64,000 bases of DNA from sequence record ON286972; one strand, given 5' to 3'. The notes below the pieces were generated by a model, which was given only the letters and a program-made list of their open reading frames with translations, did no database searches and was not told the DNA's origin. Shown here in pieces: positions 49 to 15,827 of the stretch (within the stretch, counting starts at the first letter, position 1; each line of letters opens with the position of its first letter). A program made the position numbers and the translations under genes. Source of the DNA: Escherichia phage A4.

Positions 49-77
49 TTGACACCCTTTCAGTACTGATGTACTAT
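49..77 (+). promoter_or_regulatory. sigma70-like promoter ahead of family A array
   Basis: TTGACA 49-54, 17-bp spacer, TACTAT 72-77; AAGGAGA SD 89-95 before ATG 103. Confidence 0.5.
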
Positions 78-102
78 ATAAGAAATATAAGGAGAATCGT
101 AC

Positions 103-330
103 ATGCCATATGCTCTAAAGTACTACATCAATGAACTAAATGAACTAGAGTACGCAAAGGTTCTCTCTGACCAATCGTGGCTAATTGAACTAAAAAATAA
201 GAAGAGCACTGGGTGTAACCTTATGCTTGGTAGTGCACTGAACACCCTTACTGTGAGCATTGTACACAATACACTATTAGGGGATACCCGTAAACAATTT
301 TTAAACATCTTAGTACTAGTGGCTATATGA
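103..330 (+). CDS. hypothetical small protein, tandem paralog family A
   Basis: 75-aa ORF after strong SD; N-term ALKYYINEL resembles family A KE[YF]Y start. Confidence 0.6.
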   Translation: MPYALKYYINELNELEYAKVLSDQSWLIELKNKKSTGCNLMLGSALNTLTVSIVHNTLLGDTRKQFLNILVLVAI

Positions 331-527
331 ACATTAACCCGTACTACATCAATGCATTGCACCCTGGGCTACAAGATGCAATGAAGAACCAAAAAACAGT
401 ACTGAAAAATGCTAAACGCACTCCAGGACTCCTGAACTCAAACAGGAATAACCTCATCTGGAATGCAATAGAAGGTAACGAAAGTATGCAGTACTATTTC
501 ATCTTAACACTACTATTGGAGTACTAA
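327..527 (+). CDS. hypothetical small protein, family A
   Basis: 66-aa ORF, ATGA start/stop overlap with upstream gene; C-terminal Leu/Tyr tail. Confidence 0.6.
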   Translation: MNINPYYINALHPGLQDAMKNQKTVLKNAKRTPGLLNSNRNNLIWNAIEGNESMQYYFILTLLLEY

Positions 528-528
528 T

Positions 529-738
529 ATGAAAACTGAACATAAAGAATTCTACACCAAATATCTCAGCAACGAAGAACAAATGTTTCTAAGGAGTGTA
601 CCACCTGTAAGTATAGACACACCCAACACAAGGAATTGCTTTAATAATTGTATACGTAGTACTCTAGAAGCTATTGAATACAATAACAAAAATATGCAGT
701 ACTCAAGTTTAATCGGACTAATATACTTCTATGAATAA
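529..738 (+). CDS. hypothetical small protein, family A
   Basis: 69-aa ORF; N-term HKEFYTKYLS; starts 2 nt after previous stop. Confidence 0.65.
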   Translation: MKTEHKEFYTKYLSNEEQMFLRSVPPVSIDTPNTRNCFNNCIRSTLEAIEYNNKNMQYSSLIGLIYFYE

Positions 739-922
739 TCATAAAGATTTCTACTGTAGTAAACTACACGAACAATACAGGGACTCATTCCCTCAAGAAC
801 CTATGAGAAAGAATAGTCCCTTTTATAATTACGATTTCAGGTTGGAGACACGTTATGCAATAGAACAACCATTTACTTCAACTAAGTACCGCTCTATCCT
901 GAACCTCATCTTTAAGTTCTAA
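731..922 (+). CDS. hypothetical small protein, family A
   Basis: 63-aa ORF; N-term NNHKDFY; overlaps previous stop. Confidence 0.6.
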   Translation: MNNHKDFYCSKLHEQYRDSFPQEPMRKNSPFYNYDFRLETRYAIEQPFTSTKYRSILNLIFKF

Positions 923-933
923 AAAGGTACTAT

Positions 934-1143
934 ATGAAAATTACAAACATTCATCAGTACTACATAGATATTCTACCTAAAGATGTACAGTTCATCCTTA
1001 AACAAGAATTCAGTACTTTTAAAAAACTAAAAAGAACCGCACCTAATGTACTCATCCAGCACCAAAAAAATGTAGTTGATAATATTCTACAAGGTGCAAC
1101 AGGGACCGAGTACTTTAATATAGTAAGGCTAATTACATTATAA
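934..1143 (+). CDS. hypothetical small protein, family A
   Basis: 69-aa ORF; N-term IHQYYIDILP. Confidence 0.6.
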   Translation: MKITNIHQYYIDILPKDVQFILKQEFSTFKKLKRTAPNVLIQHQKNVVDNILQGATGTEYFNIVRLITL

Positions 1144-1328
1144 TGAATCATATAAGCTACTATTACCAACAACTATCCGACAGGGACAAGTACAGCCACA
1201 ACTCCCATGTATGGTACTACAAACGCGGTAGTATAAGGGACAAACAACATTACTTCTGTACTGCTATAAAAGAAGTACTAACAACTAAGTACACGTACAG
1301 AGCAGTACTTAAACTTATTGAAATGTAG
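1143..1328 (+). CDS. hypothetical small protein, family A
   Basis: 61-aa ORF; C-term YTYRAVLKLIEM shared with the next three members. Confidence 0.6.
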   Translation: MNHISYYYQQLSDRDKYSHNSHVWYYKRGSIRDKQHYFCTAIKEVLTTKYTYRAVLKLIEM

Positions 1329-1336
1329 AGAATACA

Positions 1337-1516
1337 ATGCTAGAATACTACCTAAGCGTAATTTACCCAGAAGATAGATACGGCTTCAATTACTTCTCAA
1401 TGAGCTATCATTGTAGTTCGCAAAGAAAACAAAGAAAATTACTCCTGAATTGTACTAAATTGGCACAGGACGAAATGTTCACATATAATGAAGTACTGAA
1501 ACTAATTTCTATCTAA
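1337..1516 (+). CDS. hypothetical small protein, family A
   Basis: 59-aa ORF translated by hand (MLEYYLSV...YNEVLKLISI); below the ORF-track length cut-off. Confidence 0.55.
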   Translation: MLEYYLSVIYPEDRYGFNYFSMSYHCSSQRKQRKLLLNCTKLAQDEMFTYNEVLKLISI

Positions 1517-1524
1517 GGTACACT

Positions 1525-1704
1525 ATGCAAGAATTCTATATCTATAAACTCCAGAACAAAGATAGATATATCTATAATCAATTCCAAAGGTACTACACAG
1601 TAGGGAACAAAAGAGATAAAAAACGATACCTGCTATCATGTACAGTAGAAGCACAAAACGAAAAGTACACGTACAGAGAAGTACTGAAACTAATCTCTAT
1701 ATAA
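1525..1704 (+). CDS. hypothetical small protein, family A
   Basis: 59-aa ORF translated by hand (MQEFYIYKL...YREVLKLISI). Confidence 0.55.
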   Translation: MQEFYIYKLQNKDRYIYNQFQRYYTVGNKRDKKRYLLSCTVEAQNEKYTYREVLKLISI

Positions 1705-1714
1705 GGAATAAACT

Positions 1715-1894
1715 ATGCTAGAGTACTACACCGATAATCTCAGTACTAAGGATCGTTTCATGTACGACACCTTCGTGAAGTACTACAACCTGGGAACAAA
1801 AAGTACTAAAACTATTAATCTCAATAGCTGTATTCATCACGTCCTGACAAAAAATAACCCATACAGAGAAATAATCTCGCTTGTAACAGTATAA
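1715..1894 (+). CDS. hypothetical small protein, family A
   Basis: 59-aa ORF translated by hand (MLEYYTDNL...YREIISLVTV). Confidence 0.55.
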   Translation: MLEYYTDNLSTKDRFMYDTFVKYYNLGTKSTKTINLNSCIHHVLTKNNPYREIISLVTV

Positions 1895-1913
1895 GCAATT
1901 TAAGGAGACTAAA

Positions 1914-2585
1914 ATGAAACTCAATCCACAAAGCAAACGATACCTACAGCACTTTAAGTACCTGCAATCAATCCAGGCTGAATCTACCACTAATGCATAT
2001 ACTTATCATCCTAATGTACTAAAGAACCTAAAGAAAAGTAAAAAAACCAGTACAAATGGAGTTAACGTATCAAAGAACCTTGAATTGTACATGAAGAAAA
2101 ATAATATAGCTGTTCATTATATGAATATCTATAATACTGATTTAAAAGTATTGAGTACTAATACGAGCATGAAGGTACTAAAGAACGCATCCTTCATCAT
2201 CCATATGCAGTTGGATAATACCCCGTGCACTTTAATGCTATACTTCGGGAATACATACTTCTTCGGGAATTGTAACACCTCCCACGATGTCAATACAGCA
2301 CAATTCCAAATGGGTGGCATATACAGTATGGGTTCAGAAGAAATACACGATAACATGCATTTCTTCCAACAGCAACGTACAGAAGAAACTAAATCAATTG
2401 TAGAATTCCTCAAAGAACTACAAGGCAAAGAATTATCAGAAGAAGAACTATTCATGTACAGTACTGTAATCAATAATCCTGTACTGTACAAAAACGCGTA
2501 CAATCTAACAAAACATGTACATGAACTTATCAGTACTAATAAGAAAATTCATCACCTCATTACGTATATTACAAACTATGTATAA
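1914..2585 (+). CDS. hypothetical protein with family C-like motif, inside family A array
   Basis: 223-aa ORF after TAAGGAGA SD; carries SEEELFMYSTV, a variant of the family C FQxS motif. Confidence 0.65.
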   Translation: MKLNPQSKRYLQHFKYLQSIQAESTTNAYTYHPNVLKNLKKSKKTSTNGVNVSKNLELYMKKNNIAVHYMNIYNTDLKVLSTNTSMKVLKNASFIIHMQLDNTPCTLMLYFGNTYFFGNCNTSHDVNTAQFQMGGIYSMGSEEIHDNMHFFQQQRTEETKSIVEFLKELQGKELSEEELFMYSTVINNPVLYKNAYNLTKHVHELISTNKKIHHLITYITNYV

Positions 2586-2760
2586 AGAATACTACATAAG
2601 TTTTCTTAGTATTGATCTACAAAAGCTTATTCCCCAAAAACCTGTAGATTTCAAAGATAAGAGCCAAACTATATTCTACCGATATCAAACAGAATCTGCA
2701 ATAAATGAAGATGATATCTATAACCTGTACAATGTACTAACACTTATATACAGGTACTAA
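2578..2760 (+). CDS. hypothetical small protein, family A
   Basis: Internal ATG 2578 gives MYKEYYISFLS start; ORF-track start 2515 judged an upstream extension. Confidence 0.6.
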   Translation: MYKEYYISFLSIDLQKLIPQKPVDFKDKSQTIFYRYQTESAINEDDIYNLYNVLTLIYRY

Positions 2761-2761
2761 T

Positions 2762-2950
2762 ATGCATAAAGAATACTACACAAAATATTTCCCAATGTAC
2801 CTCAGAACTAATCTATTAGATAAACCTCGCGGTATCAATACACAAAACGATAAAAAGTACTTTACTATGTGCACTAAAGCATGTATACAAGATTATGATA
2901 GCTATCATCGAGTACTGTACCACACCCTGTACCTCGCATTCGTGTACTAA
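2762..2950 (+). CDS. hypothetical small protein, family A
   Basis: 62-aa ORF, MHKEYYTKYFP...LYHTLYLAFVY. Confidence 0.65.
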   Translation: MHKEYYTKYFPMYLRTNLLDKPRGINTQNDKKYFTMCTKACIQDYDSYHRVLYHTLYLAFVY

Positions 2951-2959
2951 GGAAATCAT

Positions 2960-3160
2960 ATGCATAAAGAATACTACATAAAAGAACTACCAAAGTTTCT
3001 ACAAGGCAATCTATTAGATGATGAACCTCGCGACATTAACTGTATATACGAAGCTGATTACTTCCGTACATGTACTGAACAAGTACTTAATGAAGAAGTT
3101 AATGAAAACAATTCTCAAGTACAACTGTACCACACTCTGTATCTCGCGTTCCAGTACTAA
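2960..3160 (+). CDS. hypothetical small protein, family A
   Basis: 66-aa ORF, MHKEYYIKELP...LYHTLYLAFQY. Confidence 0.65.
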   Translation: MHKEYYIKELPKFLQGNLLDDEPRDINCIYEADYFRTCTEQVLNEEVNENNSQVQLYHTLYLAFQY

Positions 3161-3168
3161 GGACTAAT

Positions 3169-3351
3169 ATGTATAAAGAATTTTATAAAGATCATCTCCC
3201 AATGCATCTCCAACACCTTGTACCAACAGAACCAATAGGAATAAAAGATCACGCAAAGATAATGTTCCAACAATGTACTAAGTACACCCTAATATATGAT
3301 GACAATCCATATATGCTGTACTACATGGTAATGCTAACATTCAGGTACTAA
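3169..3351 (+). CDS. hypothetical small protein, family A
   Basis: 60-aa ORF, MYKEFYKDHLP...MVMLTFRY. Confidence 0.65.
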   Translation: MYKEFYKDHLPMHLQHLVPTEPIGIKDHAKIMFQQCTKYTLIYDDNPYMLYYMVMLTFRY

Positions 3352-3352
3352 T

Positions 3353-3553
3353 ATGTATAAAGAATACTATATGAGTAAACTATCAACCACCGAAAGAATC
3401 TGGTGCGGAGCCGCCGCCCCCGTTAATCCAAAAAGTGCATACGCAAAAATGTGCTTTAGGAAAGCTACAACGAACTCAATTGAAGCTCTAGAACAAGATA
3501 ACACTAAAGCACTATACTCTAACCTAATGTTGCTAGTATATATCTATGGATAA
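3353..3553 (+). CDS. hypothetical small protein, family A
   Basis: 66-aa ORF, MYKEYYMSKLS. Confidence 0.65.
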   Translation: MYKEYYMSKLSTTERIWCGAAAPVNPKSAYAKMCFRKATTNSIEALEQDNTKALYSNLMLLVYIYG

Positions 3554-3734
3554 TTATAAAGAATTCTACTTAAGTACTCTCCCTACAGTACTATCACTTA
3601 GTGCTCAATATAAAGTTCCCCTGGATAATGCATACTCCAAGTATAACTACTCCCTAACTGTTAAACGCTGTATAGAGAATCTTAGCAGTACTAATCAGTA
3701 CTATAACATCGTACTACTTATATTCAGGTACTAA
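3546..3734 (+). CDS. hypothetical small protein, family A
   Basis: 62-aa ORF, MDNYKEFYLSTLP...LLIFRY; 8-nt overlap with previous gene. Confidence 0.65.
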   Translation: MDNYKEFYLSTLPTVLSLSAQYKVPLDNAYSKYNYSLTVKRCIENLSSTNQYYNIVLLIFRY

Positions 3735-3735
3735 T

Positions 3736-3921
3736 ATGTATAAAGAATACTATAAACAATTTGTTAAAGAGAACTACAAACATGCCGTCCCCGTAATCCC
3801 TTTAAATTCCCATGACCCAAGTTCTATATTCTTGTTTAAGGACGCAATACGTACAGTACTCAATACTAAAGATGAACAGGTGCAGTACGTATTCTTACTA
3901 TTACTTATATACAGACACTAA
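3736..3921 (+). CDS. hypothetical small protein, family A
   Basis: 61-aa ORF, MYKEYYKQFV...LLLIYRH. Confidence 0.65.
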   Translation: MYKEYYKQFVKENYKHAVPVIPLNSHDPSSIFLFKDAIRTVLNTKDEQVQYVFLLLLIYRH

Positions 3922-3938
3922 AGCACTAAGGCACTAAT

Positions 3939-4139
3939 ATGAATAAAGAACATAAAGACTTCTATATAAGAGAACTCAAAGAGAATGAACAAGTATGGAT
4001 TAAATCTCTCATAGAACTACCCTTTAATAGATATGAATTGTATAGATGTACTAATATAGCAATAGACCCTCCTCCTTTTGAAGAGAATGTAGAGTACAAA
4101 CAGTACTACTATATCTTAATGCTTATATATAGGAAGTAA
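3939..4139 (+). CDS. hypothetical small protein, family A
   Basis: 66-aa ORF, MNKEHKDFYIREL...LMLIYRK; last member before the non-coding hub. Confidence 0.65.
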   Translation: MNKEHKDFYIRELKENEQVWIKSLIELPFNRYELYRCTNIAIDPPPFEENVEYKQYYYILMLIYRK

Positions 4140-4800
4140 TATAGCTAGGGGAAGCTCCATAGTGCAAGCATTATACAGGCTTTAACATATGTTGCATATG
4201 TTAAAATTCAGCCTGGACAAATGCGATCACTAGGATTCTCCCCAGGCTAAACCCCGTAATCATAGGTAGTCATAAGTAATCATATATAAACATTTAAGTA
4301 ATCATTTATAATCATGGTAGTGATTAGTATTGAGTACTAGAGTGTAATAGAGTACAGGAAAGTATTCAGTACTGAAGGATTACCCCTATATGATTCAGTA
4401 CTGATATCCCACTAAGTAGGCAAATGAAGTCGCCCAAAATTTACATAATTTTACAGTACTGAACAATTGCAAAACAAATCATTTCCAATCAAAAGTAATC
4501 ACGGAATGACCAGTACTGAAAACTCCCAATCACCTATTCAAAAAAGTTCAATTTACCCTTCGTCAAAAATCCCGAATACCCATTGGGGAAAATTCCGAAT
4601 ACCCCTTGAGGCTCCAGCAAAAAGTTGGTTAGTACTCCATCGTAAATCTGGATCGTAAAAATTTTGGAGTACCTATGAAATAAAAGTTGGATCTTCGAAA
4701 GTTGAAATTTACATTGGGACATATAGGATTAGTGGGATATAATGAGTTTTGAAGAGATACAGAGTATACGATTTCAGTACTGAATGGTGAAAGAAAGTTA

Positions 4801-4828
4801 TTGACTTTATGATTCAGTACTGTATAAT
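4801..4828 (+). promoter_or_regulatory. sigma70-like promoter with no downstream ORF
   Basis: TTGACT 4801-4806, 16-bp spacer, TATAAT 4823-4828; no ORF of 60 aa or more follows. Confidence 0.35.
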
Positions 4829-5204
4829 GTTCTACATAGAGTGATGGATTGCCGCAAACAATTCAGAGCCTTAACCCTCCTGTCGTGAGACAGTACAGAA
4901 GAGATTGAATCCTCCTATGCAGTGGTTCATCTTTGACAACCTCTTTTTTCGTAATATAAACAGTACTGTTATTAACAGAATGGTAGCAGTACTGATATTA
5001 ATCTAATATAATGTTACCATGCAATGTGGTGAATTCCCCTTAACAGTATTCAGTACTACATGATAGTCTTCATCCTCCTAGGGTAACATAGTGAGGGCTA
5101 TGATGGCAGTACTGAATACTCCCTTCTTAAAGATAGATCTATGGTATAGTACTGACGGATTTTGGGCGTAGTAACCCTGGGTGGATTTTGGACGTAGAGA
5201 TGTC

Positions 5205-5350
5205 TAGACCTCCAGATGGCTGGAAGTAAAGATGGCTATCCCTCTAGACGGCTAGACGGCTGGATGGCTAGATTTCTAGATGGCTGTACTGCTAGACGTT
5301 TGGACGGCTAAACGGCTAGATGGTTACACGTCTGGATGTATAGACGGCTA
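5205..5350. repeat. iteron-like array of about 14 contiguous 8-9-bp repeats (consensus RGAYGGCT)
   Basis: tagacggct / agatggct / ggatggct / ggacggct units run head to tail through 5205-5350. Confidence 0.7.
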
Positions 5351-5534
5351 AATCAAAATTTTATACTGTTTTTTTCCATTAGTTCCCCTACCGCGTGGGG
5401 ATGGTTTCCCCGCAGTATCTGGAGTTAGATTTTTCTGAATCTGGAATCATTATCTAATAAACTGGGGGCAATGTCAACCGCCTGGATGAATATTTTTAAA
5501 AAATAATCTAGTACTGAATTTTGGGCGTAACTAT

Positions 5535-5590
5535 GCACCCGGTGGGCTAGAGTCTTTCTCGACTTGATGAAATAATTATAGCAGTACTGG
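5535..5590. repeat. 56-bp dispersed repeat, copy 1
   Basis: gcacccggtgggctag...cttgatgaaataattatagcagtactgg; about 80 percent identical to copy at 9830-9885. Confidence 0.55.
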
Positions 5591-6053
5591 AAAAATAAAG
5601 CAATACCCTGGATGCAAAAAGTTTTAATTAATTTGCTTGCCATCCTGGGGCGTACTATGGTACTATGATTCAGTACTGAGAAAGTGCTTTGACCTGCTAG
5701 GGTGCGGGAGTGTATCCTTTTTAAATTTTATGAATTTTGGACGGATCTTCCCACCCCCTGGGGTATCCGCTTTCTCGCGTCTATGTAGTAATTATACGCT
5801 TTTTTAGTACTGAGTCAATAGCTAAAAACAAAATAATTGAAAATAATTTAACGCGTTTAAACGGCCCGTAAAGCCCTGGATTGGTGGGAGTGGTGCAAAT
5901 GTATAGCTTAGGTGTATTAATGCGTTAGAACGCGATTGAGGCCGTTTTAATGGTATAGTACTGAATAATTGTACTCACTGGATTGATTCAGTACTGAATG
6001 ATAGTACTCCTATATAGAAAGAAAACTATTTTAAAAGTATTTGTAGAAAGTAC

Positions 6054-6081
6054 TTGCATACTATGTTTAACGGCGTATAAT
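6054..6081 (+). promoter_or_regulatory. class A early promoter
   Basis: AGTACTTGCAT -35 region and TATAAT 6076-6081, 16-bp spacer; followed by G-rich leader and ATG 6138. Confidence 0.55.
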
Positions 6082-6137
6082 GTTTTACATCGAGACGGGG
6101 GAAACGCTCCTAACTCACTTTAATAGGAATTAAAACG

Positions 6138-6500
6138 ATGGCGACTCAAATCACTAAAATCATTGCTAACCTGGTTAACTTTCGCGAAGAGATGAAAGAT
6201 CTTCCGGCTGAGACTGTAAAGATTCATATTTCAGCTTATCGGGAATTGATTGCAATGTTGCCGCTTAAGCGTGAACAATACGCCGCTACTGTGATGCTTG
6301 ATGCGATGATCCACAAGATGATTGCCAGTGATTTAACGATGGCTTATCAGTACATGGGCGAACTATTTGCGGTGTATAGTAAACCAGTGCCTGGGATGGA
6401 AAGTACCGAAGTATTGCACGGCTTAAACTTAAAACAAGATGCATGGGATAATATGCCTCGTTTCCTGGTATGGGCTGACAGTGGCAAGATTTACGAATAA
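6138..6500 (+). CDS. hypothetical protein
   Basis: 120-aa ORF downstream of promoter and purine-rich SD. Confidence 0.7.
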   Translation: MATQITKIIANLVNFREEMKDLPAETVKIHISAYRELIAMLPLKREQYAATVMLDAMIHKMIASDLTMAYQYMGELFAVYSKPVPGMESTEVLHGLNLKQDAWDNMPRFLVWADSGKIYE

Positions 6501-6514
6501 GTTTTAAAAAGTAC

Positions 6515-6573
6515 TTGCATACTAAGTTTAAAAGCGTATAATACTTTCTATCAGGTGGGGAATAGTTCCCCAC
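6515..6573 (+). promoter_or_regulatory. class A promoter plus 5'-UTR hairpin
   Basis: TTGCAT 6515-6520, TATAAT 6537-6542; hairpin GTGGGGAA-tag-TTCCCCAC 6555-6573. Confidence 0.6.
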
Positions 6574-6594
6574 TATAATTAAGAGATTAATTTT

Positions 6595-6828
6595 ATGAGT
6601 ACTATCTTAACTGTTTCTCAATCCGTTGCACTGGCTGAATTGATGGAAGCTCTGAGCCGTTGCACTGAGGTTGGCTTGTTTGATGTGGTTGACGTTGCAC
6701 CGGACGTTATTAATCATTTTTGTGATGCAATGGAAGAGTGCAAGGAAGATGATAGCCGTATGATGGCGGCCACCTTTGAGGAAGTACAGCCAGGTGAGAT
6801 CAAAGGTTTACCAGTACTGAAAAAATAG
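6595..6828 (+). CDS. hypothetical acidic protein
   Basis: 77-aa ORF after promoter, hairpin and SD (AAGAGA). Confidence 0.7.
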   Translation: MSTILTVSQSVALAELMEALSRCTEVGLFDVVDVAPDVINHFCDAMEECKEDDSRMMAATFEEVQPGEIKGLPVLKK

Positions 6829-6831
6829 TAC

Positions 6832-6892
6832 TTGCAAACTAAGTTTAAAAGCGTATAATACTTTACATCGAGGCGGGGGAATGGTTCCCCGC
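6832..6892 (+). promoter_or_regulatory. class A promoter plus 5'-UTR hairpin
   Basis: TTGCAA 6832-6837, TATAAT 6854-6859; hairpin GCGGGGGAATGGTTCCCCGC 6873-6892. Confidence 0.6.
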
Positions 6893-6914
6893 TCAATCAA
6901 ACGAGGATTTAAAA

Positions 6915-7154
6915 ATGGCTAAATCAAAAATGTTCTTAGGTCACAAAAACAAAACTCAATGGAATGTAAGCCTTTGGATTAATAACGATGAATCATTATA
7001 CCGGTTGGCCCAGGACTTTATTGCCGCTAACACTAATCGCAATGATGCGGCCCGTCATATGATGCTATTTTTAGAACAGACTGGACAAGATAAAACGCCG
7101 GACGGATTCAAGTACAGTACTACGGCGATCCGTGCGGCGATGGTTGGAATGTAA
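6915..7154 (+). CDS. hypothetical protein
   Basis: 79-aa ORF; SD GAGGA 8 nt upstream. Confidence 0.7.
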   Translation: MAKSKMFLGHKNKTQWNVSLWINNDESLYRLAQDFIAANTNRNDAARHMMLFLEQTGQDKTPDGFKYSTTAIRAAMVGM

Positions 7155-7236
7155 TAGAATAGATTTAAAGTACTATTGCACGGTGATAGTACTTTATAAT
7201 AGGATTTTATTCATACATCAACGATGGGGTAACAGC

Positions 7237-7500
7237 ATGAATATTATATACTTTGCAACGCGTGAACAAGCTCGGATCGCCGCTCGCCAGGACGGGGCAA
7301 CGTTTAAAGATATGGGCGTGCAATCGGAACGTGGTAAACGTTGGGCGGTAGTAAAGCAAAGTACAGCCAGATCCTTACAGTACTGGTTAGCGGCGTTAAA
7401 AAGTCCTGCTAGTGTATCGCGTCGAGTGGTAGAAATAAAGCACGACCGCAAGGGCAACCGTGTTACTGTGTACAGTACTAAAAAGATAGCAGTACTATAA
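7237..7500 (+). CDS. hypothetical protein, paralog of gene at 19204
   Basis: Start MNIIYFATREQARIAARQ; C-term HDRKGNRVTVYS shared with 19204..19599; ORF-track start 7132 judged an extension. Confidence 0.65.
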   Translation: MNIIYFATREQARIAARQDGATFKDMGVQSERGKRWAVVKQSTARSLQYWLAALKSPASVSRRVVEIKHDRKGNRVTVYSTKKIAVL

Positions 7501-7509
7501 AAAAAGTAC

Positions 7510-7568
7510 TTGCAAAGTAATTAGATTAATGTATAATACTTTCTATCAGGTGGGGAATACTTCCCCAC
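7510..7568 (+). promoter_or_regulatory. class A promoter plus 5'-UTR hairpin
   Basis: TTGCAA 7510-7515, TATAAT 7532-7537; hairpin GTGGGGAATACTTCCCCAC 7550-7568. Confidence 0.6.
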
Positions 7569-7589
7569 TACAATGAAGAGGATTTTAAA

Positions 7590-7820
7590 ATGGCTATTAT
7601 GTATATGACCGAAGTTAAAACCGTAAAAGATACTACCACTAATAAAACTACTTACTTACAGCGGGTATGCGGTGTATGGCAACGTATTAGTAAAGCAAAG
7701 TACTATAAATTAACTTCATATGCTAATCGTTCGGATTCATTCAGTACTGAAATAAAAGGTAATAAATTACACCAATACGGCACTTATTATTATTATAGCC
7801 TGGACGCGATTGCAGTCTAA
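7590..7820 (+). CDS. hypothetical protein
   Basis: 76-aa ORF after promoter, hairpin and SD. Confidence 0.7.
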   Translation: MAIMYMTEVKTVKDTTTNKTTYLQRVCGVWQRISKAKYYKLTSYANRSDSFSTEIKGNKLHQYGTYYYYSLDAIAV

Positions 7821-8070
7821 GCAGTTTACAAATCTTTACAATTGCCAGTATTGACTTATTTTGTCAGTACTGGCATAATGTATCTATTGAAACGAACAAT
7901 TTGGCCCACGGGGTGCGGGAGTGTATCTATAGAAAAAGTAGTTTAGTACAGTTACAATTGTGCACCCTATGGGTTAGCTGTTGTCATGGGGTATATTATA
8001 CCAGTACTGGATAGTGCTGTCAATACCTTTTTTTTACTATTCAGTACTGAAAACTATTTTTAAAAAGTAC

Positions 8071-8098
8071 TTGCAAACTATGTTTAAAGGCGTATAAT
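8071..8098 (+). promoter_or_regulatory. class A promoter (first of a tandem pair)
   Basis: TTGCAA 8071-8076, TATAAT 8093-8098; exact TTCAGTACTGAA palindrome at 8040-8051 upstream. Confidence 0.55.
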
Positions 8099-8106
8099 GT
8101 TTTACA

Positions 8107-8185
8107 TCAGGACGGGGAACGAAATAAGTAACTCCCCATTAAGTAGCCCAGGAGTAAGGCACACGAAAAACTCCCCTGATAAAAT
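8107..8185 (+). other. conserved ~80-nt structured leader / candidate small RNA (copy 1)
   Basis: caggacggggaacgaaataagtaactcccc...ctcccctgat, near-identical to 18008-18085; internal GGGGA/UCCCC and AUCAGG/CCUGAU pairings. Confidence 0.4.
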
Positions 8186-8188
8186 AGT

Positions 8189-8216
8189 TTGAAAATTGTT
8201 TTTAAAAGCGTATAAT
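8189..8216 (+). promoter_or_regulatory. second promoter of tandem pair
   Basis: TTGAAA 8189-8194, 16-bp spacer, TATAAT 8211-8216; ATG 8249 follows. Confidence 0.5.
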
Positions 8217-8248
8217 ACTTACATCAACTACTGAATGAGGGTTACAAA

Positions 8249-8860
8249 ATGAAAACTATCACTACTACTACTTTCGTTATGGATTTTTCTGAATTGAACG
8301 CAGAACAAAAAACGTCAGCTATCGAACTGGTTCGGGAACGTGAAAAAAACTCAAACGACAATTATTTTTCTGAAAGTGAAATTGAATACTATAAAGAAAC
8401 AGTACTACCGGAATATGGCATTAATGACGCTGAAATACAATTCAGTGGTTTTTGGTCCCAGGGTGACGGTGCATCAATCAGTACTGACCACGTTGACGCA
8501 GTGAAGTTTTTACGCAAGGTAAGAGCATTAACTAAGTATCGCTCAATCCGTCACCTGCTGAATGAAGATGATTTGGCGATGAGTGTAAAGCGTTCGCACT
8601 CCCACTACTCGCATGAGAATACTGTAAGCGGGTACATTGAATCGGCTTACACTGATTTAACCGCAAAACAAGAAACGTTAGTTAATGAGCTTGAGGAACT
8701 ACTCACTGAAACTATTCGTGAATTATCCCGCAAGTTGTACCGTGATTTAGAGAATGCATATGAGGATCAATTCACTACTGAAAACATTACGGCACTGATT
8801 GAGGGTAACGAATATCAATTCAATGTTATTGATGGCGTAGTAGAATCAATCGAATATTAA
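8249..8860 (+). CDS. hypothetical acidic protein
   Basis: 203-aa ORF; SD GAGGG upstream; no family recognised by eye. Confidence 0.7.
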   Translation: MKTITTTTFVMDFSELNAEQKTSAIELVREREKNSNDNYFSESEIEYYKETVLPEYGINDAEIQFSGFWSQGDGASISTDHVDAVKFLRKVRALTKYRSIRHLLNEDDLAMSVKRSHSHYSHENTVSGYIESAYTDLTAKQETLVNELEELLTETIRELSRKLYRDLENAYEDQFTTENITALIEGNEYQFNVIDGVVESIEY

Positions 8861-8872
8861 TTTAAAAAGTAC

Positions 8873-8932
8873 TTGCATTGTAGTTAGATTAACGTATAAT
8901 ACTTTACATCGAGGCGGGGAATGGTTCCCGCC
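8873..8932 (+). promoter_or_regulatory. class A promoter plus 5'-UTR hairpin
   Basis: TTGCAT 8873-8878, TATAAT 8895-8900; hairpin GGCGGGGAATGGTTCCCGCC 8913-8932. Confidence 0.6.
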
Positions 8933-8950
8933 TTTACTGAGGGTTATCTA

Positions 8951-9232
8951 ATGAGCAAAGTAATTAACTATACAGTGTTAAGCAAGTCATTGTCTATTAG
9001 CCAATGTACTGATGGTTATTGGCTTTATGATGAAACGCGTGGCATGAATTTAGCTATGCAGGAGAAAACTACTGATGCGGCATATCTTAAAGCACTGGAA
9101 TACTACCAGAAGCGTTTAAAGGAAGTAGAAAACGATTATAATAACCTGAAAGCGAAAGTAGATAATTTCGTTGGTCAATTCGTTGACGATGACGAGGGGC
9201 ACTACTGCGACCGTTGCGGATCTTACAGTTAA
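8951..9232 (+). CDS. hypothetical protein
   Basis: ATG 8951 after GAGGG SD; ORF-track start 8921 lies in the leader hairpin. Confidence 0.65.
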   Translation: MSKVINYTVLSKSLSISQCTDGYWLYDETRGMNLAMQEKTTDAAYLKALEYYQKRLKEVENDYNNLKAKVDNFVGQFVDDDEGHYCDRCGSYS

Positions 9233-9249
9233 GTACTGAGGATTATCTA

Positions 9250-9453
9250 ATGAGTGATTTAATTGAACGTATCAAAGAGCTTGAAGAAAAAGAATTGCAG
9301 TTAATCGGCTTACAGAATAAAATCTATCATGATTTGGGGAGTTTTATCAATGCTTGGGATAGTGGCGATCCTGATGCGTTACCTGCTAACCGCCAGGCGA
9401 TGATCAATGATGTGCGTAGTGTCTTTGAGTATGTTTTAAAGCAATTAAATTAA
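9250..9453 (+). CDS. hypothetical protein
   Basis: ATG 9250 with GAGGA SD 8 nt upstream; no own promoter, likely co-transcribed. Confidence 0.6.
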   Translation: MSDLIERIKELEEKELQLIGLQNKIYHDLGSFINAWDSGDPDALPANRQAMINDVRSVFEYVLKQLN

Positions 9454-9462
9454 AAAAAGTAC

Positions 9463-9490
9463 TTGCAATTAGTTTTTAGTACTGTATAAT
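9463..9490 (+). promoter_or_regulatory. class A promoter
   Basis: TTGCAA 9463-9468, AGTACTG then TATAAT 9485-9490; G-rich hairpin follows. Confidence 0.55.
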
Positions 9491-9541
9491 GGTTTACATA
9501 GAGGGGGGGAAATGGTTCTCCCTGGTAATGAGGAAAATACA

Positions 9542-9763
9542 ATGGCTAATATCACTACTCTTTCCCAACTGGAAGCACTGGTTAAATCTATGCGGGAACA
9601 TGCCGACAATATCGGCGTAAAAGATCCAGCCGTTTGCTTCTGCGACGAATTGAATGATGATACCCTGGTAATAGCAGAAGTCCAGGACGTTTCTAACTAT
9701 TCCTCGCGTTACACTGGCGGTGTAGCAAATAAAGGTGACTTCTGTTTATACCTTACAAAATAA
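9542..9763 (+). CDS. hypothetical protein
   Basis: ATG 9542 after GAGGAAAA SD. Confidence 0.65.
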   Translation: MANITTLSQLEALVKSMREHADNIGVKDPAVCFCDELNDDTLVIAEVQDVSNYSSRYTGGVANKGDFCLYLTK

Positions 9764-9766
9764 CAA

Positions 9767-9798
9767 CGCGGGGAGATAATAACTCCCCGTTACTTTTT
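9767..9798 (+). terminator. rho-independent terminator
   Basis: Stem CGGGGAG/CTCCCCG with 7-nt loop, then TTTTT. Confidence 0.6.
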
Positions 9799-9829
9799 CA
9801 GTACTGAATCATTTAATAGACGGATCTCG

Positions 9830-9885
9830 GCACCCGGTGGGTTAGTGACTGTTTCGTCTTGATGTAGTAATTATGCCAGTACTGG
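9830..9885. repeat. 56-bp dispersed repeat, copy 2
   Basis: gcacccggtgggttag...cttgatgtagtaattatgccagtactgg; weaker relatives near 5745 and 7963. Confidence 0.55.
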
Positions 9886-9931
9886 ATGCACTTGTCAACA
9901 ATTATTTTTCAAATACTTTTTATTAAAATAC

Positions 9932-9959
9932 TTGCAATTAGTTTTTAAACGCGTATAAT
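9932..9959 (+). promoter_or_regulatory. class A promoter
   Basis: TTGCAA 9932-9937, TATAAT 9954-9959; GGGGGAGCGGTTCCCC hairpin follows. Confidence 0.55.
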
Positions 9960-10006
9960 GTTTTGCATAGGGGGAGCGGTTCCCCTGGTAACTAAGGAAT
10001 AAGAAA

Positions 10007-10243
10007 ATGGTCGAACAAATCAAATCAACGTCTTCGAATGTAACGGGAACGGTAGCACACTTTACTAGTGATGAATCGCGGGGCGTTCCCTATTGTGCTG
10101 TACATGTAAACACTGAGGGTAACTACTGGTTTACGGTTTACGGATCATATTCATTTGGACGGCCAGGGCATCAAAAAATTCTGGATAAAGTACAGCCAAC
10201 GGGTAAAAATATCACTGCTGAAATGTTTTATAAAAAATCATAA
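10007..10243 (+). CDS. hypothetical protein
   Basis: 78-aa ORF; SD TAAGGAA. Confidence 0.7.
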   Translation: MVEQIKSTSSNVTGTVAHFTSDESRGVPYCAVHVNTEGNYWFTVYGSYSFGRPGHQKILDKVQPTGKNITAEMFYKKS

Positions 10244-10328
10244 AGTACTTGATAATAGTTTTTAGTACTGTATAATATTTTACATCGCAAGGGGGGAGCG
10301 GTTCCCCCTGGTAACTAAGGATAATCAA

Positions 10329-10628
10329 ATGAAAATTGCAATCATCGCCCTGGCTTTATCTGTTTCCTCTTTCGCTGTTAATGCGTCGTTAGATGTAAGT
10401 AGTGAAAAATTCATTCAGTGCACCGTAGCAATGACAGATGAAAGTACTGGCGAGATTGTTTTAAAGGATTTAGAGATCCAGCCAGAAGCATTTAAAAACG
10501 GGCCGTTCCATGAAGAAGACGAAAAAGGTAGCACGACAATTTATTACGATGCAAGTACTAAACGCGGTTCGGTCACTGTTATGGATACTGAGAAAGTAAC
10601 TCATACTGGCGTTATTAATTGCCGTTGA
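10329..10628 (+). CDS. small secreted/periplasmic protein (predicted signal peptide)
   Basis: N-term MKIAIIALALSVSSFAVNA has positive-hydrophobic-AxA signal-peptide shape. Confidence 0.65.
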   Translation: MKIAIIALALSVSSFAVNASLDVSSEKFIQCTVAMTDESTGEIVLKDLEIQPEAFKNGPFHEEDEKGSTTIYYDASTKRGSVTVMDTEKVTHTGVINCR

Positions 10629-10649
10629 TAGATACTACGGGGTAACATC

Positions 10650-10880
10650 ATGACTAAGCGAATTGTTTTACTTAACGAAAGCAGTACTACACAACTACTT
10701 AACGCCGTGCATTATGATATTGAAACGAGCGTTAATCTTATCAGTACTGTAGTACTGTTGGACACTGGAAAGGTCGCCAATGATAAAGCGATTGCAGGTA
10801 TACTAACGGATCTTGAGCCTGGTAGCAGTGCACCAATAACGTTAAATGGTAAAGTGTTTAACATTTTACTTACTGATTAA
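10650..10880 (+). CDS. hypothetical protein
   Basis: 76-aa ORF 20 nt after previous stop. Confidence 0.6.
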   Translation: MTKRIVLLNESSTTQLLNAVHYDIETSVNLISTVVLLDTGKVANDKAIAGILTDLEPGSSAPITLNGKVFNILLTD

Positions 10881-10886
10881 GTACAT

Positions 10887-10909
10887 AGCCCACCTGGTGG
10901 GCTTTTTTG
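10887..10909 (+). terminator. rho-independent terminator
   Basis: Stem AGCCCAC/GTGGGCT, loop CTG, then TTTTTT. Confidence 0.7.
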
Positions 10910-10962
10910 TTTTTGTAGTATCGTAGTACTGAGATACTTTGAAAATAGTTTTAAAAAAGTAG

Positions 10963-10990
10963 TTGACATTACCGCAGAAAAGCGTAGAAT
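10963..10990 (+). promoter_or_regulatory. sigma70-like promoter
   Basis: TTGACA 10963-10968, 16-bp spacer, TAGAAT 10985-10990. Confidence 0.5.
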
Positions 10991-11113
10991 GTATTACATC
11001 AAGACGGGGAGCACTAAGTAGACCGCCAGTAAGTCGAACGAAAAACTGGACACGTCGAGAAAACTTTGATACACTAATAAACGTAAACTAAACTTTAATT
11101 GAGGATTTATAAA

Positions 11114-11596
11114 ATGGCTAATGTAAAATCATTCATCAAAGCACTGGTAGCAAATGAAACTAACGTAGCGGCAGAGATCCTGGCTGAACTGGATAACGAT
11201 ACCATGAAAGCGGTACGCAATAATTTTAACATCGCTTACAGTACTGCGAAAGAACTACAAGCAAATAAAGCGGCGGCACTTGAAGCTGAGAAGGCAGCAC
11301 GCGAAGCAGAATTGCAGAAAACGATTGAAGATATTAACGCCGCCGTCGCTGGGCTTGATCTGGAAGTAGTTACCGAAATGGCACGTAAAGCCCTGGCAGC
11401 GAAATACGGGGAAGACAAGCCAGAAGTAAAAGCTAAAAAATGGATTCAAGAACGTGTGACGGTTGTACTGGATAATGGCGAGGAATACACTGTACCAGTA
11501 CGCGGTAACTGCATTGCCGTAGTACTGGATGCTATCAAAGAAAGCGGTTTGACCCGTGAGGAATGGATCGAAGCTCATCGCAAAGTTGAAGCATAA
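11114..11596 (+). CDS. hypothetical Ala-rich protein
   Basis: ATG 11114 after GAGGA SD; 160 aa. Confidence 0.7.
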   Translation: MANVKSFIKALVANETNVAAEILAELDNDTMKAVRNNFNIAYSTAKELQANKAAALEAEKAAREAELQKTIEDINAAVAGLDLEVVTEMARKALAAKYGEDKPEVKAKKWIQERVTVVLDNGEEYTVPVRGNCIAVVLDAIKESGLTREEWIEAHRKVEA

Positions 11597-11617
11597 CAAT
11601 TAAAGTACTGAATCACT

Positions 11618-11645
11618 AGCCCACCTTAAACAGTGGGCTTTTTTG
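11618..11645 (+). terminator. rho-independent terminator
   Basis: Stem AGCCCAC/GTGGGCT, 8-nt loop, then TTTTT. Confidence 0.7.
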
Positions 11646-11798
11646 TGTCTATAGTATTCCAGTCCACTAGCACCGCCTAGAATCGATTCTAACGCATTAA
11701 ACTGATTATCTGATGTATCGCCCTAGCTGGTGGCGTTAAGGTCGTTAGAACGCGATTGAGGGCGATTAAAGTATTTTATAAAAACTAATAAAAAGTAC

Positions 11799-11826
11799 TT
11801 GCACGATTAAGAGATTAGCGTATAAT
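11799..11826 (+). promoter_or_regulatory. class A promoter
   Basis: AGTACTTGCAC -35 region, TATAAT 11821-11826. Confidence 0.5.
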
Positions 11827-11871
11827 TAATTACATCAAGGCGAGACACCTTAACTAACTGAGGATATAAAG

Positions 11872-12024
11872 ATGAATACTTATGAACTGGATTGTTTCAC
11901 TTTACAAGTAATGTCAGTATGCAGCAAGAAAGATTGGTCATCAAAGGAATTTAAAGCAGTTATCGCGTGTGCAAAACACGGCAAGACTATCAATGAAACG
12001 GCATCAATCATTGATAAACTTTAA
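11872..12024 (+). CDS. hypothetical small protein (50 aa)
   Basis: Hand-translated MNTYELDCFTLQV...; SD TGAGGA upstream. Confidence 0.5.
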   Translation: MNTYELDCFTLQVMSVCSKKDWSSKEFKAVIACAKHGKTINETASIIDKL

Positions 12025-12032
12025 AAAATAGT

Positions 12033-12061
12033 TTGACAATAGTTTTAAGTACTGACATAAT
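12033..12061 (+). promoter_or_regulatory. sigma70-like promoter
   Basis: TTGACA 12033-12038, 17-bp spacer with AGTACTG, CATAAT 12056-12061. Confidence 0.55.
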
Positions 12062-12094
12062 ACATACATCAACTACTGAATAGGAATCAAAACA

Positions 12095-12322
12095 ATGGCT
12101 ATCGTAATCACTCGCGTAACTGGTACTACTGGCACTGCTTCAACTGTTGCTGTAATTACTAATAAGAAAGGTGCGGAATTACATTTTGCAATGAATACCT
12201 GGGCGGTGAATGAGTTCGGTCAGTGGGCAAGTGTAGAATACATTGAAACCTATCAAGTGCCATCGATTAGCTTAACTGATTTAGGTGTAGAACGTATCCT
12301 TTGCCTGGATGAATTAAATTAA
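12095..12322 (+). CDS. hypothetical protein
   Basis: 75-aa ORF; SD AGGAA. Confidence 0.7.
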   Translation: MAIVITRVTGTTGTASTVAVITNKKGAELHFAMNTWAVNEFGQWASVEYIETYQVPSISLTDLGVERILCLDELN

Positions 12323-12330
12323 AAAAGTAC

Positions 12331-12358
12331 TTGCAAAGTAAATCGGATAAAGTATAAT
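12331..12358 (+). promoter_or_regulatory. class A promoter plus hairpin
   Basis: TTGCAA 12331-12336, TATAAT 12353-12358; hairpin GGGGAGAAATGATTCTCCCC follows. Confidence 0.55.
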
Positions 12359-12408
12359 ACATTACATCAAGGGGAGAAATGATTCTCCCCACTAAGAGGA
12401 AACTAAAA

Positions 12409-12552
12409 ATGAAAACTTGTCAATGTGGTAAAAAATCTATTACTGGTTTAAAGCGGGGCGTTGCTCTTTGCCAGTATCATTATAATGCTCAAGTATGGGG
12501 TAAAGAGTGGGCCGACCAGGTTGAAGCATCAAAGAAAGCAAAAAGTAAGTAA
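12409..12552 (+). CDS. small Cys-rich protein (47 aa), possible zinc ribbon
   Basis: Hand-translated MKTCQCGKK...CQYHYNAQ; CxC...CxxH spacing. Confidence 0.5.
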   Translation: MKTCQCGKKSITGLKRGVALCQYHYNAQVWGKEWADQVEASKKAKSK

Positions 12553-12571
12553 AAATATTATCACAGTACTA

Positions 12572-12600
12572 TTGACATAGTTTGATAGTACTGGCATAAT
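12572..12600 (+). promoter_or_regulatory. class B promoter flanked by inverted AGTACT half-sites
   Basis: CAGTACTAT-TTGACA-17 bp-CATAAT, with ATAGTACTG inside the spacer. Confidence 0.6.
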
Positions 12601-12633
12601 AGATTTTATCAAGACAACTAAGAGGAAACAAAA

Positions 12634-12846
12634 ATGGCTATCATTACTAAAATCAAAGTAAACAAAACACTGGTTAAGCTGGAACAAGTGAAAGCAGGTT
12701 ATAAAGTATCTTGGTGCGGTATGTATCGGACGTTCGCAGAGGTTGACGATGCAATCAAGTACTACACTGATACGGTTGCTAACTTTGTTCGTGCTGATGT
12801 AGTAATGGCAGTGGCAACACATAAAGCAGCGAAAGAAAGTAAGTAA
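12634..12846 (+). CDS. hypothetical protein
   Basis: 70-aa ORF; SD AGAGGAAA. Confidence 0.7.
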   Translation: MAIITKIKVNKTLVKLEQVKAGYKVSWCGMYRTFAEVDDAIKYYTDTVANFVRADVVMAVATHKAAKESK

Positions 12847-12865
12847 AATTATTATCACAGTACTA

Positions 12866-12894
12866 TTGACATAGATTGATAGTACTGGCATAAT
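12866..12894 (+). promoter_or_regulatory. class B promoter
   Basis: Near-identical copy of the 12572 cassette. Confidence 0.6.
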
Positions 12895-12937
12895 AGATTT
12901 TATCAAAACAACACATATTAATTTAAGGAATACTAAA

Positions 12938-13282
12938 ATGGCTAACATCAACACTATCGCATCACAAAATATCAACCTGTCTTCTGTTGAAGTTGTACAT
13001 ATTGCCGCTCGGCGTTGGTTCCAGGCTTCATATGGTAACACTTATTTCTCTTTAAGTGTAGACGTTGAAATTGATGGTAATTTTATTGAAGTAGTAAACG
13101 TGCCGTTCCAATATGGATACGGGGATCACTTTGACACTGTAGCAATGGAAGAATTTAGCAAGGTTATTAATATGGAAGGTAAAGAGTTTTTACGCGGTTC
13201 TTATCTTTCCCGTTTTTGCCGTGACAATAATATCACTGTTTACAGTTCGGTAACTGATGTTAAACGCAAAAAAGATCTTTAA
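12938..13282 (+). CDS. hypothetical protein, paralog of gene at 18785
   Basis: 114 aa; shares GNTY...YGYG and C-terminal DVKRKKD with 18785..19108. Confidence 0.7.
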   Translation: MANINTIASQNINLSSVEVVHIAARRWFQASYGNTYFSLSVDVEIDGNFIEVVNVPFQYGYGDHFDTVAMEEFSKVINMEGKEFLRGSYLSRFCRDNNITVYSSVTDVKRKKDL

Positions 13283-13362
13283 TTAGCTTTACTTTATGCA
13301 GATACTTTGATATAGTGTCTGCATAGGGGAAAGAAATTAAATTAACTTAAGAGGATAGTATA

Positions 13363-13632
13363 ATGAAAAATATCAGTACTTTAATCGATGCAGGTACGCA
13401 TGTTCGTCGGTCTATGGTTGCAACCAGCACTACAAAACAAGTAGCAAGCGGTTATCTTGTATTTGTACACGATGGAAAACTCCTGGAACGTTCAATCAAT
13501 TTTGATGTTAAGAACAATTGTCGTTTTATTATCTTTAAGCGTGAGCAATATAAAATTGATTTACCAGCGAAGCCCATTAGCGGGGCGTACAACGTGCAAT
13601 CATTGTTTGAGCGTCAACCATACACCTATTAA
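13363..13632 (+). CDS. hypothetical protein
   Basis: 89-aa ORF; SD AAGAGGA. Confidence 0.65.
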   Translation: MKNISTLIDAGTHVRRSMVATSTTKQVASGYLVFVHDGKLLERSINFDVKNNCRFIIFKREQYKIDLPAKPISGAYNVQSLFERQPYTY

Positions 13633-13683
13633 TCAAAACAACGTTAGCGGTTGATTTGGGCCGCTAATTTTGAGGATAATACT

Positions 13684-13854: not shown

Positions 13855-13897
13855 TATTCTTACTGTACAGGATAAGATCGACATCTTAAAGGTTAAT

Positions 13898-14284: not shown

Positions 14285-14287
14285 TAC

Positions 14288-15814: not shown

Positions 15815-15827
15815 TATTAAAAAATAG

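Follow-up and report, generated by a model that had tools for sequence, protein, structure and literature searches.

Seventeen diverged small paralogous genes in one putative operon of Escherichia phage A4: a possible repertoire of host- or defence-binding miniproteins

The multigene families MGF100/110/360/505 of African swine fever virus (ASFV) and the K3L 'genomic accordion' of poxviruses are near-terminal tandem arrays of diverged paralogs, which vary among isolates and modulate host range and the evasion of innate immunity. In phages, the pre-early genes of T5 lie in the terminal repeat, and the host-takeover module of SPO1 and the early small open reading frames (ORFs) of T4 form blocks of small proteins. 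Here we describe an array of small genes, termed family A, at positions 103-4139 of a stretch of 64,000 nucleotides (nt) from Escherichia phage A4 (ON286972), which is called the window in the following and is counted from its first letter. The array is almost certainly a real coding operon of paralogs. Our tentative reading, which we hold with somewhat less than even confidence, is that it is a polycistronic operon of 17 anciently duplicated, diverged miniprotein genes and one gene of 223 amino acids (aa), encoding diversified binders of host or defence proteins.

Like the ASFV and poxvirus families, family A is a row of neighbouring paralogs that all point the same way, and close relatives differ in how many copies and which ones they carry. 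It differs in its bacterial host, in the old age of its duplications, in its unrelated sequence and fold, and in that a role in host range or immunity is hypothesised by analogy. With the early takeover blocks of T5, SPO1 and T4, as well as the region predicted in phage CBB (PMC5259590), it shares many very small uncharacterised proteins, strong sigma70-type promoters, and a location in or beside terminal repeats. These blocks contain mostly unrelated genes, often with their own promoters, whereas family A is one homologous family in what appears to be a single operon. Moreover, T5-like pre-early genes are located inside the repeat, while family A would lie outside it, by about 266 bp according to the homology with phage G17; a host sigma70-type promoter, as expected of T5-like pre-early genes, is predicted in front of family A.

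Tandem paralog arrays have already been noted in this lineage, in 121Q and Bacillus phage G (Hua et al. 2017, PMC5646251) and in phAPEC6 (PMC7247149). They resemble family A in lineage, in their head-to-tail arrangement in one orientation, and in being read as tandem duplications, while the jumbo-phage arrays of Hua et al. have much larger and far less diverged members than family A, whose paralogs share at most 47% identity. Family A is an uncharacterised instance of this known type of feature, and its genes have been deposited as hypothetical proteins. In the literature, we came across neither a treatment of these genes as one family nor a transcriptome or functional study of them.

The array comprises 17 small ORFs of 59-75 aa and one embedded ORF of 223 aa, all on the + strand, with a regular unit length of about 190-210 bp. 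An earlier note on this DNA had described 17 genes of 59-75 aa, and re-extraction gave the same set, including the three members of 59 aa that start at 1337, 1525, and 1715 and had been translated by hand. The gene spacing of 0-10 nt given in that note needs correction, as the measured intergenic distances range from -8 to +19 nt. The tandem arrangement holds as an array of paralogs but not as an unbroken run, because the 223-aa ORF at 1914-2585 separates members 9 and 10. The proposed N-terminus M-x-K-E-[YF]-Y is strictly valid for the ten members of the largest of four subgroups (g1 to g4) and not to the other seven, four of which begin with M-[LQ]-E-[YF]-Y or similar and three with x-x-[YQ]-Y-Y; Tyr6 is the sole invariant position of this pattern. 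Both C-terminal tails that had been pointed out, LYHTLYLAFVY and VLKLISI, were found. Member 10 most likely starts at ATG 2578 rather than at 2515: the ORF 2515-2760 (81 aa) is open upstream, and a database protein is identical to the 60-aa form from ATG 2578 (MYKEYY). Five deposited A4 proteins were matched, four of which are named with their members below, and A4_254 is identical (100%) to a protein encoded in the window. The features of the locus are as follows.

49..77, + strand: promoter-like site of the sigma70 type, TTGACA-17-TACTAT, from the promoter scan (TTGACA 49-54, TACTAT 72-77)
61-68: palindrome CAGTACTG in the promoter spacer, invariant in nine phages
89..94, + strand: AAGGAG ribosome-binding site of the first gene, seen in the sequence, invariant in nine phages
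103..330, + strand: member 1, 75 aa, g4, the most divergent (g3 hidden Markov model (HMM) E=1.9e-4; hhalign g3-g4 over 61 columns); equals A4_246
327..527, + strand: member 2, 66 aa, g3 (BLASTP to member 5 E=2.8e-9; g1 HMM E=7.6e-5)
529..738, + strand: member 3, 69 aa, g1 (BLASTP/HMM; among the ten matches to PHROG 11711)
731..922, + strand: member 4, 63 aa, g1, starting 8 nt inside the preceding gene (BLASTP/HMM)
934..1143, + strand: member 5, 69 aa, g3 (BLASTP); equals A4_249
1143..1328, + strand: member 6, 61 aa, g2, with a TAATG stop/start overlap (BLASTP/HMM; ratio of non-synonymous to synonymous substitution rates, dN/dS, 0.10)
1337..1516, + strand: member 7, 59 aa, g2 (BLASTP); equals A4_251
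1525..1704, + strand: member 8, 59 aa, g2 (BLASTP, ortholog comparison)
1715..1894, + strand: member 9, 59 aa, g2 (BLASTP); equals A4_253
1914..2585, + strand: embedded gene, 223 aa, between members 9 and 10, matching PHROG 29152 (no function attached)
2578..2760, + strand: member 10, 60 aa, g1, overlapping the 223-aa gene by 8 nt (start by homology)
2762..2950, + strand: member 11, 62 aa, g1, the protein modelled with AlphaFold2 (AF2)
2960..3160, + strand: member 12, 66 aa, g1 (BLASTP/HMM)
3169..3351, + strand: member 13, 60 aa, g1 (BLASTP/HMM)
3353..3553, + strand: member 14, 66 aa, g1 (BLASTP, ortholog comparison)
3546..3734, + strand: member 15, 62 aa, g1 (BLASTP/HMM)
3736..3921, + strand: member 16, 61 aa, g1 (BLASTP/HMM)
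3939..4139, + strand: member 17, 66 aa, g1, closing the array (BLASTP/HMM)
4140..4405, no strand: spacer from the array end to the inner boundary of the direct terminal repeat (DTR) inferred at ~4405 from homology with G17

The genes are real and under purifying selection. Eighteen ORFs of at least 55 aa fill 97.7% of 103-4139 on the + strand, whereas 1000 composition-matched sequences simulated by a first-order Markov model contained a mean of 0.49 such ORFs (maximum 4), with a coverage of 19% at most; the - strand carries three, covering 17%. Start signals are present throughout: a Shine-Dalgarno-like AGG/GGA/GAG precedes 13 of the 18 starts by 5-13 nt, and at the remaining five the start overlaps the stop of the gene before by 1-8 nt (ATGA, TAATG or an 8-nt overlap), an arrangement that is the signature of a predicted translational coupling. 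All ORFs of the array are intact in every related genome examined. Comparison with orthologs in nine related loci gave a pooled Nei-Gojobori dN/dS of 0.22-0.31 at a dS of about 0.3-0.4, calculated from gap-free orthologs of at least 60% identity only, a filter that biases the ratio downward. Chance ORFs are excluded by the observed coverage against the simulated maximum, together with the codon-level purifying selection. A degenerate tandem repeat of DNA was also rejected, as Tandem Repeats Finder detected no repeat of unit length.

The 17 small ORFs were divided by BLASTP into three subgroups and a singleton: g1 with ten members (529, 731, 2578, 2762, 2960, 3169, 3353, 3546, 3736, and 3939), g2 with four (1143, 1337, 1525, and 1715), g3 with two (327 and 934), and g4, the singleton at 103. 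The profile of each subgroup was enlarged with database relatives and compared by hhalign, with 100 column shuffles as control (mean about 9, standard deviation about 2, maxima 14.5-17.5). Over the full length, g1 was linked to g2 (P=9e-7, probability 91%, score 32.5, shuffled maximum 16.1) and to g3 (P=3.6e-6, probability 87.5%, score 30.2, shuffled maximum 17.5), and g3 to g4 (P=3.3e-4, probability 38%, score 23.8, shuffled maximum 14.5, z about 8). All 17 small ORFs are therefore assigned to one family, because these full-length scores exceed the shuffled maxima, and the paralogy proposed earlier has gained statistical support from BLASTP, the HMMs and hhalign. Judged from these profiles, member 1 (103-330) is the most distant and forms the weakest link. 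The pairwise identity of the paralogs in the window is at most 47%. PHROG 11711, which has no function attached, was matched by the ten g1 members (cut-off E<=0.01, best E-value 8.5e-27), while the seven members of g2, g3 and g4 had no PHROG match; PHROG 11711 thus takes in g1 only, and the three other subgroups are joined to it here by profile-profile comparison. No further member was found elsewhere in the window, where the best off-array HMM match (E=0.005) is antisense to a gene of family C, a downstream array described below. The C-terminal region of the 223-aa protein resembles g2 over 17 columns (score 18.5, shuffled maximum 15.3), and AF2 gave no usable model of it (predicted local distance difference test, pLDDT, 43.5); because the resemblance is so short and the model poor, this protein is not counted as a member. 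Its gene is kept at the same position in all relatives.

The AF2 model of member 11, built from an alignment of 58 sequences, has a pLDDT of 87.2 and a predicted template modelling score of 0.69. It contains two short helices (3-7 and 12-15), a loop, and two longer helices (28-43 and 48-61), and confidently predicts a small, soluble, helical domain whose aromatic core is conserved and whose surface is hypervariable. The low-entropy columns of the alignment are nearly all aromatic or aliphatic (Y/F5, the invariant Y6, L10, L18, F34, C37, L42, Y52, I55, L56, L58, I59, Y60, and Y62), while the presumed surface columns have an entropy of 3-3.7 bits, which is close to the maximum. Tyr makes up 11% of the residues. 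The isoelectric point (pI) varies from 4.5 to 9.6 across the members, with 11 of 17 at 7.8 or above and six at 6.9 or below. No conserved polar residues hinting at catalysis were seen in the alignment; the members matched nothing in Pfam, NCBIfam, or a PDB sequence search; the fold search with the model returned no informative match; and neither a helix-turn-helix nor any other DNA-binding family or fold was recognised. Holins, spanins, and other small membrane or lysis proteins were rejected as candidates, because none of the members has a transmembrane segment (the maximum 19-residue Kyte-Doolittle mean is at most 1.2).

The search of other phage genomes, which had been suggested as a check, recovered the array in relatives with the same architecture. 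About 40 Asteriusvirus phages (PBECO4/121Q group), which are jumbo phages of E. coli and Salmonella such as PBECO4, 121Q, slurp01, G17, and phAPEC6, match the first 6 kb of the window with ~84-87% identity over 70-80% of its length. A profile search of 1.84 billion cluster representatives yielded 34 clusters at E<=1e-3, all of 41-69 aa, and a tblastn search with one member returned 33 phage records, which come without exception from Escherichia or Salmonella phages. As far as detected, family A appears confined to one phage genus. In addition, two more divergent metagenomic contigs show the same architecture including the ~222-aa gene, and the longer one (L008) also carries an array of RCC1-like genes upstream.

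Complete loci contain 15-22 copies in a constant block order: the 103-type gene, g3, g1, g1, (g3), two to six g2 genes, the ~222-aa gene, and seven to twelve g1 genes. Within this order, sequence types are present or absent mosaically among relatives, and the pool comprises at least 34 types. In ten loci, no ortholog of member 7 exceeds 46% identity, a close ortholog of member 14 occurs in L008 only among the compared loci, and orthologs of member 12 occur only in phAPEC6, PBECO4, and L008. The low identity of the paralogs together with the patchy orthologs indicates that the duplications are old and that the repertoires are mosaics drawn from a larger pool. The gene junctions have a common stretch of about 25 nt, GTACTAAT-ATG-nATAAAGAATAcTAc, which reflects the conservation of the C-terminus ..RY* and the N-terminus MYKEYY; these junctions could mediate unequal recombination.

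Annotation of the array is very uneven among the deposited records of PBECO4, UB, phAPEC6, and BF17. In the array region, the UB record annotates the ~222-aa gene only, and the PBECO4 record annotates five small ORFs, one of just 39 aa, while each of the two contains 17-19 family A ORFs in intact form. Because of this patchy annotation, the gene counts published for these phages are underestimates.

Across nine phages, the 100 nt ahead of the first gene show 95% identity, compared with 57-64% for the first protein, and the TTGACA, CAGTACTG, TACTAT, and AAGGAG of this region are invariant in all nine. The TTGACA-17-TACTAT arrangement was also found at 19913 and 20190. The site at 49..77 is the probable single promoter of the operon. 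Promoter- and terminator-like sites inside the array (23, against 27 expected from shuffles) show no excess, from which we infer one polycistronic transcript. Ahead of window position 1, all relatives carry divergent RCC1-like (WD40_RLD) beta-propeller genes, arrayed on the - strand and about 370-410 aa long, at least eight of which are visible in L008, and the two arrays have this conserved divergent control region in common. Previous studies showed that the related phage PA5oct relies on host RNA polymerase (PMC7318152), and that RpoD-like promoters stand before short hypothetical genes near the terminal repeat of CBB, which was read as an early host-takeover region (PMC5259590). Early, sigma70-driven expression of the array is predicted to be likely.

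For phage G17, a terminal redundancy of about 20 kb was reported from read coverage (Korf 2019, PMC6563267), and its DTR is exactly 20,668 bp. Window positions 3952-6590 align with G17 21121-18532, and the G17 DTR maps onto about 4405-25391 of the window, which leaves the array end (4139) about 266 bp outside the boundary. The equivalent of the repeat (~6138-25391) contains dozens of genes of 45-200 aa, all on the + strand, with at least ten perfect TTGACA-16/17-TATAAT promoters on the same strand as the array. Terminator-like sites reach about twice the shuffled expectation there, and the hairpin AAAGGGATTGACTCCGGTCAGTCCCTTT recurs at 17839, 21148, and 23907. A leader, TACAT-n-RAGRGGRGAA-ATG, was also observed 11 times in this region (0.31 expected), so that several ORFs start with MVLP or MILP.

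According to the scheme we propose, host RNA polymerase would transcribe the operon early, and translation would be coupled from gene to gene. The products would form a diversified battery of small binders, each with a different host or host-defence target, acting in takeover or counter-defence, and unequal recombination at the conserved junctions would gain and lose cassettes. Taken on its own, the function as a repertoire of binders aimed at the host or its defences is suggested by analogy, and we regard it as possible but doubtful. The scheme draws on the common scaffold with its variable surface, on the genus-restricted and changing repertoire, on the promoter context, on the work on PA5oct and CBB, and on the absence of family members from the retrieved part of the phAPEC6 virion-protein table. 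Several points weigh against it. Early transcription, translation, and binding to host partners are predictions, and the placement of the array beside the DTR is carried over from G17. The paralogs are old (at most 47% identical), and the downward-biased dN/dS indicates purifying rather than positive selection, so that no ongoing arms race is demonstrated. Furthermore, no similarity in sequence or fold to characterised takeover, anti-defence, or anti-CRISPR proteins was found.

Of the other explanations, the one that survives best, though we consider it unlikely, is that the paralogs serve the phage itself, as interchangeable subunits of homo- or hetero-oligomers, or as adaptors, chaperones, or regulators for the RCC1-like array or family C. 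The tight coupling (-8 to +19 nt) would yield near-stoichiometric output, the aromatic C-terminal helix and the 11% of Tyr are suited to protein-protein packing, and the block order is conserved across phages. The control region (100 nt, 95% conserved) is common to the RCC1-like genes, two of which, gp549 and gp551, are listed along with a 4.66-kDa protein in the retrieved part of the phAPEC6 virion-protein table (PMC7247149). However, gp540c-548c are absent from that part of the table, which shows no member of the family, with several members being unannotated in phAPEC6. In addition, the types are mosaic among phages that are otherwise alike in this region, which is unexpected for obligate subunits, and the surface residues are nearly unconstrained across the paralogs.

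Rather less probable is that the genes are mostly dispensable duplicates of weak or redundant fitness effect, kept because a jumbo capsid tolerates or locks in extra DNA (the capsid-genome ratchet of Hua et al. 2017). The authors of that study argued that the genome of 121Q has grown by tandem duplication (PMC5646251), a range of 15 to 22 copies has no obvious consequence, and three more paralog arrays lie in or beside the window. However, a dN/dS of 0.22-0.31, ORFs that are all intact with start signals in each genome examined, a promoter better conserved than the coding sequence, and a core pattern retained by paralogs less than 47% identical are not what such filler would show.

It is improbable that the members are small nucleic-acid-binding or transcription-modulating proteins, such as anti-sigma-like or nucleoid-associated proteins, which reprogram host or phage expression. 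They are small helical proteins from a probable early region, most are basic (pI of at least 7.8 in 11 of 17), and the palindrome CAGTACTG, which saturates the genome and sits in promoters, needs a reader. However, besides the missing DNA-binding fold, six members have a pI of at most 6.9 (the lowest 4.5), no conserved basic surface positions are present, and 17 divergent copies are hard to square with one conserved DNA motif. Finally, that the region is non-coding (chance ORFs or a degenerate DNA repeat) or encodes small membrane or lysis proteins is hardly credible, for the regular unit length, the hydrophobic C-termini, and the many GenBank records that leave most units unannotated are outweighed by an ORF coverage far beyond chance, codon-level purifying selection, and the lack of any unit-length repeat or transmembrane helix.

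About 4 kb of every Asteriusvirus genome is given to family A and is under-annotated. If the members are indeed early binders of host or defence proteins, they would amount to a natural collection of at least 34 miniprotein variants in compact form, which could be screened for inhibitors of E. coli or Salmonella proteins or defences, and a tractable case of multigene-family evolution in phages. If they are redundant filler instead, they bear on the growth of jumbo genomes.

A second array of small genes, family B, is located on the other flank of the terminal-repeat region and starts about 1 kb past the other repeat boundary. It was equated with the LGTNYQ-motif array of 23 genes at 26365-32709. 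It has at least 23 genes of 50-96 aa, packed tightly or overlapping, with an L-G-T-[ND]-x-Q motif and matches to PHROG 4148 (no function attached). Family B resembles family A as a tandem array of small proteins (~75 aa) in the same orientation, but differs in its LGTNYQ motif and shares no detectable homology with it. The earlier note had suggested that the two may be distant relatives; hhalign gave a probability of 0.2-3.1% and a score of 8.2 (shuffled mean 6.6, maximum 11.4), which does not support this kinship, and the common 'EY..L' pattern is rejected as a compositional resemblance without profile similarity beyond noise.

A bolder proposal would join both families: A and B as cassette-like combinatorial libraries of miniprotein binders which bracket the terminal repeat, with A built on an unseen fold. 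Each isolate would then have its own selection from at least 34 types, every type would serve to neutralise another host defence or host factor, the 25-nt junctions would be recombination joints, and the whole would be a phage counterpart of the ASFV and poxvirus families. We regard this as speculative and unlikely.

Downstream of family B, family C (~33000-64000) consists of about 50 consecutive + strand ORFs of ~110-280 aa, with matches to PHROGs 12674, 30978, 34636, and others, none with a function attached. Tyr and Phe codons of family A mostly end in C (TAC 67%, TTC 64%), compared with 38-52% TAC and 35-43% TTC in family B, family C, and the repeat-region genes (TAC 38% in family B), while its Asn, His, and Asp codons show no C-ending bias. 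This codon bias could reflect high expression or a genome-wide enrichment of GTAC(T).

Directly downstream of the family A array, about 2 kb (4140-6137) contain no credible ORFs, and in all relatives the array likewise gives way to about 2 kb free of ORFs. It straddles the inferred inner repeat boundary (~4405), which is a physical genome end in G17. It contains 12 copies of CAGTACTG, short repeats of the GTAATCAT type (4256-4315), and ~13 tandem copies of the 8-mer CTAGACGG (5244-5350); no Rfam match and no tRNA was found in the window, this stretch included. It could hold signals for packaging, end recognition, replication origin, or injection control. The GC skew flips sign here, and the negative skew of the array stems from the amino acids that it encodes (few codons starting with G).

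The 8-bp palindrome CAGTACTG occurs 72 times in the window (0.86 expected from shuffles) and is its most over-represented 8-mer, at about 25x the order-2 expectation; its core AGTACT, a ScaI site, occurs 273 times (about 50 expected). Sites include 61-68, the 12 copies at 4367-5996, 14630, 17351, 21602, 22096, and 24070. Many sigma70-like promoters carry it in their spacer, immediately ahead of TATAAT. Its density peaks at 6 per kb in 4140-6137, and copies also fall within family C coding sequence. It could serve as an operator, be bound by a nucleoid-type protein, or be a target of modification.

Finally, two larger ORFs were identified among the neighbouring arrays. Between the terminal-repeat equivalent and family B, a 272-aa ORF (25480-26298) matches the endonuclease PHROG phrog_681 (E=3e-10) and may encode a homing endonuclease. 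Amid family C, a 470-aa ORF (51130-52542) contains the signalling domain of methyl-accepting chemotaxis proteins (PF00015, E=4e-37), which is unusual for a phage.

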